NCBI GenBank assembly: GCA_048939465.1
Contig: JBHLPL010000045.1
Coordinates: 1 to 14,469, forward strand
Source: Promethearchaeota archaeon
GTDB taxonomy: Archaea; Asgardarchaeota; Odinarchaeia; Odinarchaeales; JBHLKK01
Length of the DNA stretch: 14,469 nucleotides
Direction of reading: 5' to 3'
The notes below the pieces were generated by a model that saw nothing but the letters and a program-made list of their open reading frames with translations, was not told where the DNA came from and ran no database searches. Below, piece by piece: positions 1,393 to 11,146 of the stretch. The number at the start of each line of letters is the position of its first letter. Position 1 is the first letter of the stretch. A program made the position numbers and the translations under genes.

Positions 1393-1426
1393 CGACCTCC
1401 TCCTTGATTTATAATTATTAAAGCTT

Positions 1427-1563
1427 GTGAACAGCCCCACCCTTTCAGACGGGGTTTCCTGTTTCATCCATTCCCAACGGGATATATCTGATAGGCCCTA
1501 CGTGCATTTCCTGCCCCGCAGTTTTTTGCTTGTGAATTGGCGAGTGTTACCTCGACTGAATAC
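1427..1563 (-). ncRNA. Putative TnpB reRNA/omegaRNA-like scaffold inside mini-element 1
   Basis: The internal TATA-like TTTAAATA (1594-1587) predicts a start near 1563. The body contains GGGGCAGGAAATGCACGTAGGGCCTAT...GAAACAGGAAACCCC, which resembles the 3' non-coding tail of tnpB elements. The 5' end is estimated, not observed. Confidence 0.45.
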
Positions 1564-1649
1564 CATATGCCTTTCGCAAAAACGAGTATTTAAATTCCTC
1601 GCAATTCATCTCAACCCTTTCGGATGGGGGCTTATTGCTGAGAAGACAT
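1427..1649 (-). mobile_element. Non-autonomous IS200/IS605-family (tnpB-type) mini-element, 223 bp, no transposase or TnpB ORF
   Basis: Minus strand reads TTGAT (1654-1650, TAM-like) | ATGTCTTCTCAGCAATAAGCCCCCATCC-GAAA-GGGTTGAGATGAATTGC (left-end hairpin) ... GATGAAACAGGAAACCCCGTCT-GAAA-GGGTGGGGCTGTTCAC (right-end hairpin and TTCAC terminus). No target-site duplication, as expected for this family. The left boundary is inferred from the TAM. Confidence 0.8.
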
Positions 1650-8816: not shown

Positions 8817-10364
8817 TTATAAATTTCGGTAGACTATTTTTCCGTCCTGTATTGTCAGGCATACCTTTATTTCTCTAATTCGCTCCGGATTCTCGGATGG
8901 ATCTTCCGATAATACAACAATGTCAGCAAGTTTTCCCCGCTCAATTGAACCTTTTATGTTTTCTTCAAATGAGGCGAAAGCAGCATTTTTCGTATAACAT
9001 TTTATTGCTTCGTGTACTGACATTCTCTGACATAACATTGGTGCGTTCACGGCCCAGTGAATGCCGTATAAAGGGGAGAATGGCATACAGTCTGAGCCAA
9101 AGGCAATTAAACCACCCTTGTCGAGTATTATTCTGAAAGCACTATTCCTCTGGAACCAGGATTCTCCAAGTCTTTGTTCGTACATCTCACCTGGAAGACC
9201 CCATTCTCCTATGAAGTTGGGTTGCATAGATGCGATTATTCGGAGCTCGACTGCTTTCTGTATAGCTTCATCTGAAGCAAGCTCCATATGTTCTATTCTG
9301 TGTCTGTGATCAGCTTTTGGGAAGACCTCTAAGATTCTTTCAAGCGCTTTCACCGTCGATTCTATTGCCCTGTCTCCGATTGCATGGATTGCGAGTTGAA
9401 TTCCGGACTTGTGTGCCAAAGTGACAATCTCTTCGAGCTTATCCTGCTCATAAGTCAGCTTTCCTTTATTGCCAGGATCATCAAGAAATTCGCCCTTTAG
9501 TGCAGCAGTTCTTGAGCCAATTGAACCATCAGAATAGAGTTTAAGCGCTCCAATTCTGAGTCTTTGGTTTCCGAACCCTGTTGAAAGACCGAGTCTAAGA
9601 ATCGGTTCCAAGAGCTTTTCCACAAAGTTAAGATAGACTCTTATCCCCAATTTGCCTTCTCTAAGAGCCGAGAAGTAGGTTTCGATACTGCTGGATGAAA
9701 CAGTATCTTGGATGGAAGTTACTCCATGCCTATGAGCATATTCTGTAGCCTTCTCCAAAGCATTCCTCAGCGTGTGCCGGTCTCTGGGAATAAAGGATCT
9801 TAAATGTTCAGCAGCTTCTTCTTTAAAGACCCCACTCGGCTCTCTGGATTCATCAATCTCGACCCCTCCTTCATTGCTAGGAATATCGATAAGCTTGATG
9901 AAGTGTGTATTGACTGACAACATGTGTCCGTCAATTCTGATAAGGATGATAGGATGGCTTAGACTTATTGAATCTAGGTCTTGTCTCGTGATGTAGCGTC
10001 TTTCAGCCCATTTACTCTCATCCCAATTCGTTCCGATAATCATTTCACCCTTGGGTGTAGTGGACACCCGATCTTTGATTTTCTCAAGTGCCTCGCGGAG
10101 AGATTTTGCGCCTCTTAGATTGACCCTATTGAAGTCCAGTCCCATTTTAATGAAGTGTGTATGAGCATCAATGAACCCCGGCAGAACAACTTTTCCTTCA
10201 AGATTTATCACTTTTGTTGAGCTGCCTATCAGGTCCTCAACTTCCTTGTCTGTACCAACAAAAGCTATTCCGTTCCCGGAGATAGCAACTGCCTCAGCAC
10301 GACTATCTTCATTATCAAAAGTAATAACCTTGCCATTTATGAGAGCCAGATCTGCTTCTTTCAA
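8817..10364 (-). CDS. YtcJ-like metal-dependent amidohydrolase (amidohydrolase_3), about 515 aa
   Basis: PGFIDAHTH, KLYSDGSIGSRT, HAIGDRA, HRIEH, FGSD and GSIERGKLADIVVL. Start moved to TTG 10364 behind a GGGGGA RBS, because the ORF-track start 10463 lies inside the mini-element right end. Confidence 0.92.
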   Translation of the reverse strand: MKEADLALINGKVITFDNEDSRAEAVAISGNGIAFVGTDKEVEDLIGSSTKVINLEGKVVLPGFIDAHTHFIKMGLDFNRVNLRGAKSLREALEKIKDRVSTTPKGEMIIGTNWDESKWAERRYITRQDLDSISLSHPIILIRIDGHMLSVNTHFIKLIDIPSNEGGVEIDESREPSGVFKEEAAEHLRSFIPRDRHTLRNALEKATEYAHRHGVTSIQDTVSSSSIETYFSALREGKLGIRVYLNFVEKLLEPILRLGLSTGFGNQRLRIGALKLYSDGSIGSRTAALKGEFLDDPGNKGKLTYEQDKLEEIVTLAHKSGIQLAIHAIGDRAIESTVKALERILEVFPKADHRHRIEHMELASDEAIQKAVELRIIASMQPNFIGEWGLPGEMYEQRLGESWFQRNSAFRIILDKGGLIAFGSDCMPFSPLYGIHWAVNAPMLCQRMSVHEAIKCYTKNAAFASFEENIKGSIERGKLADIVVLSEDPSENPERIREIKVCLTIQDGKIVYRNL

Positions 10365-10439
10365 TACGGTCCCCCAATTGCACAAGAGTAATTGAAGATG
10401 GATTATGCAAGAACGGTTTAATAACGGTTGAGTATCAAG

Positions 10440-10705
10440 GTGAACTACTCCCAGCTTTTGCAACGGGGTTCCTCCCTCTTCCCCGCATGAGTCTGAAGAC
10501 GCTTTGGCTTCAAAGAGGGGAGCTTTCTGTGCCCCGAATTCATAACTGAGCAGGAAGTAGTTGGTTTCTGGGCCGGTTCACTCTAGTTGTGCCACAGGCA
10601 CGGGACGGTTCTGTCAAGCAGGATATACGCGTAAGGCCTGCGCCCCCAGACTAGGTTTTGTTCTCATGCCGCTGACCAGCCTTCCTCTCGAAGAGAGCAT
10701 CTTAC
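10440..10705 (-). ncRNA. Putative structured guide-scaffold RNA (TnpB reRNA/omegaRNA-like) inside mini-element 2
   Basis: Internal TATA-like TTTAAAAG (10736-10729). Stems: CTCTC-TTC-GAGAG, GTGCC-TGT-GGCAC, CTTTG-AAGC-CAAAG and CCCTCTT/AAGAGGG. An internal GTGAAC (10581-10576) is complementary to the terminal GTTCAC. The 5' end is estimated. Confidence 0.5.
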
Positions 10706-10789
10706 CCAAACCTTAAATTACCAGAGGACTTTTAAACACGACTCAACTCGTCTCCTCCCTCTCGGACGGGGTCTTCCTGCGGAAAAGAG
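10440..10789 (-). mobile_element. Non-autonomous IS200/IS605-family mini-element, about 350 bp, no protein gene
   Basis: Minus strand reads TTTAT (10794-10790, TAM-like) | CTCTTTTCCGCAGGAAGACCCCGTCC-GAGA-GGGAGGAG (left-end hairpin) ... GAACCCCGTTGCAAAAGCTGGGAGTAGTTCAC (right end, TTCAC terminus at 10440). No target-site duplication. The interior is GC-richer than the flanking intergenic DNA and contains many hairpins. Confidence 0.8.
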
Positions 10790-10831
10790 ATAAAAGATAA
10801 TGAATCAACCTAGATGTGAGATGCTGGGAAA

Positions 10832-11146
10832 ATGCACTTAGAAGAAATGAAGAAAAAAATAGAAGAACTCGTGCTAGAAAAGGGCTTTTACAACCGTCCT
10901 GAAGACATACCTAAGAAGTTACTTTTCGCTTTCATAGAGCTGGGCGAAGCAAGTGACGCTTGGAAGAAGGGCGAACCAGACAGCAAAATCGCGGAAGAGC
11001 TTATTGACGTAATATTCTACATTTTGGATGCGAGCAGACTGGCGTGTCCCTCGGTTAACATGGACGAAATGTTCCTTTATAAGCTGGAAAAGAACAGAAA
11101 GAGAGAATATCAGTACGGTGAGGGGCACAGGAAAAGACCTGAATGA
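10832..11146 (+). CDS. MazG-like nucleotide pyrophosphohydrolase, 104 aa
   Basis: IELGEASDAWKK...AEELIDVIFY (ExxE...EExxD metal ligands) and a C-terminal EKNRKREY. Confidence 0.88.
   Translation: MHLEEMKKKIEELVLEKGFYNRPEDIPKKLLFAFIELGEASDAWKKGEPDSKIAEELIDVIFYILDASRLACPSVNMDEMFLYKLEKNRKREYQYGEGHRKRPE

Follow-up and report, generated by a model that had tools for sequence, protein, structure and literature searches.

The sharply bounded 350-nt element on the minus strand of the window (10440-10789) is very probably a non-autonomous, ORF-less mini-element of the IS200/IS605 type (PATE or MITE-like), derived by internal deletion of a TnpB-only insertion sequence with retention of its promoter and omega-RNA region. 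The window is the whole 14,469-nt stretch of DNA that was analyzed and lies on contig C89 of a 152-contig, 1.96-Mb Asgard archaeal MAG with a completeness estimate of 91%. By alignment, the interior of the element is homologous to the coding region at the 3' end of tnpB in a divergent clade found in sister genomes.

Four parts of the insertion sequence would have been retained in the internal deletion that produced the ORF-less form: the left end, including its hairpin and the promoter of tnpB, roughly the first ten codons of that gene, the 3' part of tnpB that forms the omega-RNA (reRNA) scaffold, and the right end. The class B subfamily, to which the window copy belongs, would later have acquired a two-hairpin insertion of about 50 nt within this scaffold. 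The element is presumably moved as single-stranded DNA by a Y1 TnpA encoded elsewhere, the sole genomic copy of which lies on contig C105, and the left-end promoter is predicted to drive an RNA of about 270 nt that crosses the right end. If a TnpB from the cognate clade were loaded with this RNA, it would cleave the empty site, in which TTTAT directly precedes the CTTGATAC... flank, and would thereby favor retention of the element.

Element boundaries, copies, and empty site

The element runs from C 10789 to C 10440 on the minus strand and closes with the 3' terminus GTTCAC. TTTTAT (10795-10790, minus strand) immediately precedes the 350-nt body, with the TAM TTTAT (10790-10794, minus strand) adjoining the left end on its 5' side. 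Most copies are preceded by TTTAT, TTCAT, or TCTAT. There are no terminal inverted repeats; subterminal imperfect hairpins occur at both ends, are conserved across copies, and are common to the TnpB-bearing elements on contigs C105 and C2 of the same genome and at loci L059 and L068 of related genomes. The G+C content of the element is 0.53-0.56, compared to approximately 0.41 in its flanks.

Fourteen full-length class B copies of 343-400 nt, with 68-73% identity to the window copy, were identified in its own genome by BLAST and profile search (ten first, 14 with the profile). All of them lose similarity exactly at both ends, as the aligned stretch starts right after a TTTAT-like motif and ends right after GTTCAC; for the window copy, similarity to the 13 further copies begins and ends exactly at its limits (10440 and 10789, minus strand). 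The boundaries and the copy family are directly supported by these alignments. No match to class B was found outside its own genus in a BLAST search of 400 genomes of the phylum. Six shorter relatives of 287-311 nt (class D) occur in the same genome, along with dozens of isolated matches to the left end that stem from other mini families.

Within the element, no ORF of at least 60 aa occurs. The longest small frames are an ATG frame of 32 aa (10543-10445, minus strand) and, on the plus strand, a TTG frame of 51 aa; neither resembles a full TnpB. The earlier note had given a 28-codon ATG frame as the longest, which both of these exceed. Its description of a protein-free IS200/IS605 cassette is likewise borne out by the 14 copies with identical ends and without a real ORF. 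The individual parts that it had listed, i.e., TTTAT, the GAGA hairpin, the TATA box, the right-end hairpin, the terminal GTTCAC, the internal GTGAAC, and the guide flank, were all recovered in place when read on the minus strand.

The left-end subterminal hairpin (10752-10771, minus strand) carries a GAGA loop and is the presumed TnpA recognition site; it is also present in the C105 element, which encodes TnpA and TnpB, and in the C2 TnpB element. The window copy retains 6 of 8 pairs of this hairpin compared to 8 of 8 in the family consensus. The TATA box TTTAAAAG (10729-10736, minus strand) belongs to the former tnpB promoter: TTTAAAT is kept in nearly all copies and, in C2, L059, and L068, precedes the start of tnpB at the equivalent position. 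Further inward, positions 10680-10710 (minus strand) probably hold a relic of the tnpB 5' end (first ~10 codons) and approximately the expected transcription start, as judged from a by-eye alignment with the TnpB ORF starts of L068 and L059 by way of class D. At the other end, the right-end subterminal hairpin (10448-10467, minus strand) is conserved with one U/U mismatch in all classes and has two additional mismatches in the window copy. The terminal GTTCAC (10440-10445, minus strand) represents the right-end cleavage motif as well as the proposed pseudoknot 3' strand and is common to C2, C105, L059, L068, and the metagenome elements. The flank CTTGATACTCAACCGTTATT (10420-10439, minus strand) would be the guide if the RNA were made and loaded, with its position following from the TnpB omega-RNA rule (PMC10097598).

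An empty allele, which the earlier note had anticipated, was found in a related species. At L070:2890-3010 (JBHLKK010000059.1), the orthologous spacer between the small upstream gene (10832-11146 in the window) and an amidohydrolase gene occurs without the element and has TTCAT at the position of the TAM. This spacer measures approximately 110-115 nt and is about equal in length to the window spacer minus the element, with the same two flanking genes and no target duplication. The L070 junction reads ...ATGATCTTTCAT|TTGGCACAC..., compared to ...ATTATCTTTTAT|element|CTTGATACTC... in the window. The L070 spacer is a natural empty site in a related species that lacks the 350 nt. Insertion thus took place after TTTAT without target-site duplication and was recent relative to speciation.

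Three TnpB genes (C2, C105, and C70/C55) and one Y1 TnpA gene (C105:1180-1545) make up the inventory of the genome. The left-end hairpin, the TATA box, and the GTTCAC terminus of class B are also present on the TnpB-only element C2:25975-27284 and on C105, the only TnpA+TnpB element of the genome. The left-end hairpin of the latter is near-identical, whereas its right-end hairpin differs apically. Mini-element 1 of the window (class A, 1426-1646, minus strand) has approximately 17 genomic copies, in which the left end and promoter are fused to the last ~97 nt of a C2-type TnpB element, and the nuclease gene of this parent is present in the genome (C2:26093-27247). A third family (class C) has its 3' region in common with the C70/C55 TnpB. 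Compared to three TnpB genes and a single TnpA gene, the mini families number at least four (A-D) and the left-end matches well over 50, making this small genome unusually rich in guide-only IS200/IS605 derivatives.

The parent TnpB element

The class D profile matched TnpB elements in two separate regions, the left end and the final ~195 nt. These elements were found in the related genomes G002 (L068, L063) and G001 (L059) and in another family of the phylum (L032, L037, L044, L052). In L059 and L068, the TnpB ORF extends across the entire scaffold and ends in a TAG codon located within the right end. Because the profile matches both the left end and the TnpB 3' region with an ORF running through to the right-end TAG, class D is a plain internal-deletion derivative of a divergent TnpB element. 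The parent with an intervening TnpB ORF, for which the earlier note had proposed a search, is thus present in the lineage: it is intact in the same-genus genome G001 (L059), interrupted by a premature TGA in G002 (L068), and represented on five metagenome contigs. All five carry the class D-type scaffold, which closes a TnpB-type reading frame on four of them; the fifth contig is cut off just upstream.

The L059 parent TnpB is a divergent protein of 395 aa in which TNB was the only Pfam domain found. It shares 28% identity with the C2 TnpB, and its best solved natural relative is ISDra2 TnpB (E 3.7e-6, residues 118-343). The earlier proposal that the scaffold stems from a TnpB clade other than that of mini-element 1 agrees with these values. 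In the parent clade (L059:1336-2520, minus strand, G001), VFGDL stands opposite GTEHL of ISDra2, placing Gly-Asp opposite the ISDra2 Glu-His. The Glu of GTEHL is the RuvC-II catalytic residue (E278). In the parent clade, the acidic residue may be shifted, or TnpB may be impaired as a nuclease. In the class D parent TnpB of L068 (667-1851, contig C94 of G002), an in-frame TGA occurs where L059 has AAA (Lys), giving ...PV*GR compared to ...PVKGR, which marks this gene, by its sequence, as either a pseudogene or an instance of read-through.

Class B, class D, and the parents could be aligned over the S1 hairpin, the GGGCUG...GUGAAC...CAGCCC segment, CCUCCCC, GAGGGAGG, and the right-end hairpin. 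The 32-aa relic frame of class B ends in ...REEPRCKSWE, compared to ...REEAPCES in the parents. Class B differs mainly by some 50 nt inserted immediately behind CAGCCC, which form a variable hairpin and a CUGUGC/GCACAG hairpin, so that class B is the class D scaffold plus a two-hairpin insertion. No TnpB gene bearing this insertion was found among approximately 30 TnpB loci of five related genomes, and an exact-pattern scan of metagenome contigs gave 0 matches to such a parent. Within the 91%-complete genome of the window itself, a tblastn search with the intact L059 TnpB detected no intact cognate TnpB and yielded remnants only (C69:36796-37011 and C151:206-644).

Scaffold conservation and the state of the window copy

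The helices were evaluated in a set of 30 sequences, against 1000 column shuffles as well as slid controls. For the pseudoknot, 88.9% of cells were paired compared to 2-39% when slid, and the four double-change cells were reached by 22 of 1000 shuffles, which amounts to weak covariation. S1 and S2 had 75.7 and 82.8% of cells paired (35-53 and 24-48% when slid, respectively) and covaried clearly, with the observed score reached by 0 of 1000 shuffles in both cases. These two signals derive mostly from few changes between lineages, and the kin sequences are not independent. For S3, S2a, the right-end hairpin, and the class B hairpins, complementarity was conserved and lower when slid, while covariation did not go beyond the shuffles. 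Conservation of the pseudoknot complementarity and covariation in S1 and S2 are therefore directly supported, whereas the covariation that the earlier note had expected of its stems did not extend to the remaining hairpins.

The S1 region (10618-10640, minus strand) forms a hairpin with a UAUAU loop and shows compensatory changes among class B, class D, and TnpB-linked forms; it is weakened in the window copy. S2 (10570-10611, minus strand), a helix of the GGGCUG/CAGCCC type, encloses the S2a hairpin (10589-10601) and the pseudoknot 5' strand. It covaries from U-A to G-C and from G-C to U-A, and the window copy retains 4 of its 6 pairs. The class-B-specific insertion, followed by the conserved CCUCCCC strand, occupies 10517-10569 (minus strand) and is missing from class D and every TnpB-linked form; about 90% of its cells can pair, without significant covariation. 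Downstream lie a hairpin of the UCUGAG...CUCAGA type (10492-10516, minus strand), which in class B has 82% of cells paired compared to 22-55% when slid, without covariation, and the GAGGGAGG strand (10471-10478, minus strand). The latter pairs with the upstream CCUCCC to form S3, is kept in classes B and D and in the parents, and has 87% of cells paired without covariation.

The proposed pseudoknot 5' strand is the internal GTGAAC (10576-10581, minus strand), which lies 136 nt upstream of the terminal GTTCAC. In most TnpB-linked and class D forms, GTGAAC is found at -107 to -102 (range -111 to -106 through -104 to -99) and faces the terminal GTTCAC. In 15 of 16 class B copies, it is found at -133 to -156, including -142 to -137 in the window copy, and at -194 in the remaining copy on C48. 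In ISDra2, scaffold positions -6 to -2 pair with -102 to -106 (PMC10097598), and the pseudoknot of the TnpB-linked forms would, by analogy, have the same geometry. The GTGAAC/GTTCAC pairing postulated in the earlier note is upheld as far as conserved complementarity and this position in TnpB-linked forms are concerned, whereas its covariation is weak.

Conservation along class B is fairly flat, at 0.50-0.85 per 10 nt, with peaks at element positions 251-300 and at GAGGGAGG. Positions 251-300 include the best-conserved 10-nt windows and overlap the 3' part of the class-B-specific insertion. RNAalifold gave a weak consensus for 14 class B copies, with a covariation term of -1.55 kcal/mol and several untrustworthy helices. 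Unsupervised scans for covarying stacks were swamped by noise from G-U pairs and purine runs. An alternative hairpin GGAG/CUCC (Sh1) did not surpass its slid versions, and CUGUGC/GCACAG was preferred, although it is also without covariation. Two class B copies stood out within the module: G000:C48:18818-19217 has an extra 47-nt insertion there (alignment columns 264-310), and G000:C39:18557-18919 has CCUUGC in place of CCUUCC after the variable hairpin. In the C39 copy, two segments able to pair are changed to match, from GAAGG to CAAGG upstream and from GGGAGG to GCGAGG approximately 135 nt downstream, which hints at possible alternative pairings of one strand.

No unusual folding energy was detected, with z values of +1.66 for the 360-nt segment and +0.90 for the putative 271-nt transcript, and neither strand beat its shuffles. 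"Highly structured", as the RNA had been termed, is thus an overstatement, while "conserved TnpB-type scaffold" is a fair description. The scaffold had also been described as twice as long as that of mini-element 1; its length comes partly from counting at the promoter and partly from the class-B insertion of about 50 nt.

The window copy is most likely old, orphaned, and by now inactive, judging from its sequence, because the cognate nuclease was not found in the genome and because mismatches have accumulated in its end hairpins and scaffold helices. It scores lowest of the ten best class B copies, with two mismatches in each end hairpin and others in S1, S2, and the CUGUGC/GCACAG hairpin. 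Activity in trans at present would thus be unlikely for this copy. No second genomic target for the first 16 nt of its guide was found in the genome at up to two mismatches. Across the guides, the counts of second genomic targets equaled chance, with approximately one match per 16-mer at up to two mismatches.

Class B RNAs could alternatively be live trans-acting guides, loaded by an unassembled cognate TnpB or by the resident TnpB of C2, C105, or C70/C55, which would allow homing or retention without a nuclease gene. This is improbable overall. The promoter and scaffold blocks are conserved among copies that are approximately 30% divergent, the insertion overlaps the best-conserved windows, and the pseudoknot complementarity is kept in 89% of cells, but several helices of the window copy are mismatched. 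A cognate gene could lie outside an assembly that is only 91% complete and breaks at repeats, although tblastn returned nothing beyond remnants. All resident TnpB elements have a GTTCAC or GTTTAC terminus; however, the C2 TnpB is only 28% identical to the cognate clade, and the C2 scaffold serves the separate class A. The idea itself has been stated in the literature (Meers et al. 2023).

A separate suggestion is that class B has evolved on its own as a guide-only lineage, beyond a deletion relic. It arises because the two-hairpin module is missing from TnpB-linked forms and lies partly in the best-conserved stretch, and because at least 14 copies exist without a cognate nuclease. We regard it as quite doubtful. 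If true, class B RNAs would either rely on a TnpB from a different clade (cross-clade guide use) or be host-adopted regulatory RNAs.

That the host took over the element as a mobile promoter or leader, with transcription crossing the right end, entering the amidohydrolase gene (8817-10373, minus strand), and altering its expression, is very unlikely. The right end faces this gene from a position 66 nt upstream of its start, and all 20 class B and D copies are situated between long reading frames. Yet among the 19 copies with a downstream ORF, 11 are co-directional and 8 convergent, which is no clear bias; AT-rich TTTAT targets are expected in promoter regions anyway, and the related species has the same gene and spacer without the element. 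The amidohydrolase shares 77% identity with one in the MAG of L070, which is labeled Candidatus Hodarchaeota, and its next relatives are from Atabeyarchaeia, which places the host among the Asgard archaea. A TTG-started ORF (8817-10463) extends this gene by 30 codons upstream (10374-10463) and overlaps the element by 24 nt at its right end. This extension is spurious, and the shorter start near 10373 is supported by the Pfam match and by the gene of the relative.

A stand-alone, non-mobile RNA gene with a housekeeping or regulatory function (such as an RNase P, SRP, or riboswitch-like RNA), which the lack of an ORF and a G+C content above that of the flanks might suggest, has a negligible probability and is contradicted by the census of at least 14 dispersed copies with transposon ends, the empty orthologous site, the homology of the interior to a TnpB gene tail, and the Rfam result. 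At gathering score, no Rfam family, HEARO included, matched anywhere in the window, so that the comparison proposed earlier retrieved no described family. The only sub-threshold match was NiCo (E 1.5) on the plus strand, opposite to that of the element.

Comparison with known systems

Read as a deletion derivative of a TnpB-only insertion sequence, the element is of a kind that has already been described (PATE-like, omega-RNA-carrying) and does not represent a new mechanism. Its peculiarity is the conserved insertion specific to class B, together with a genome in which no cognate nuclease was found. As the concept itself is published, the value of the element is that of a well-documented case and an annotation aid, e.g., for the spurious TTG extension of 8817-10463. 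It documents the decay of TnpB insertion sequences into promoter-plus-guide cassettes in an Asgard archaeon and provides a clear-cut case of a guide family orphaned in a genome that yielded no nuclease for it. Families A and D are each traceable to the precise parental segment they retained, which amounts to a map, supplied by nature, of the minimal omega-RNA region in a divergent TnpB clade.

In Geobacillus stearothermophilus, PATE-like ORF-less elements often encode omega-RNAs that depend on being served in trans; the term PATE was taken by these authors from earlier work (Meers et al. 2023, doi 10.1101/2023.03.14.532601). Like them, the class B element has no protein gene, has IS200/IS605 ends common to the TnpB- and TnpA-bearing elements of its genome, and carries a guide-RNA region, and by analogy, it would need TnpA and TnpB in trans. 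Unlike the G. stearothermophilus elements, it resides in an Asgard archaeon, has an archaeal TATA promoter in its left end, and contains a scaffold of a divergent clade with an insertion of about 50 nt, the cognate nuclease of which was not found in the genome.

With the omega-RNA (reRNA) of ISDra2 TnpB (PMC10097598; PDB 8bf8, 8exa, 8h1j), the element shares a scaffold composed of the tnpB 3' end and the right end, a guide taken from the flank, and a 5-nt T-rich TAM; in its TnpB-linked relatives, the last ~6 nt would pair with a segment ~102-107 nt upstream. It differs from ISDra2 in having no RNA sequence similarity, a distant cognate protein (E 3.7e-6), and no protein gene of its own. Furthermore, the proposed pseudoknot partner of the window copy is located 142 nt upstream because of the class-B insertion.

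The closest comparison within the window is mini-element 1 (class A), which likewise joins a left end with a promoter to the final portion of a TnpB element and terminates in GTTCAC. While class A keeps the last ~97 nt of a C2-type element, class B keeps approximately 210 nt of another clade plus the insertion. The IscB/IsrB omega-RNA (HEARO) is also a long structured guide RNA of IS200/IS605 elements that is found without its ORF as well. HEARO lies at the left end with its guide at the 5' side, and the class B element matches no Rfam family, HEARO included, and has its homology in a TnpB 3' end.
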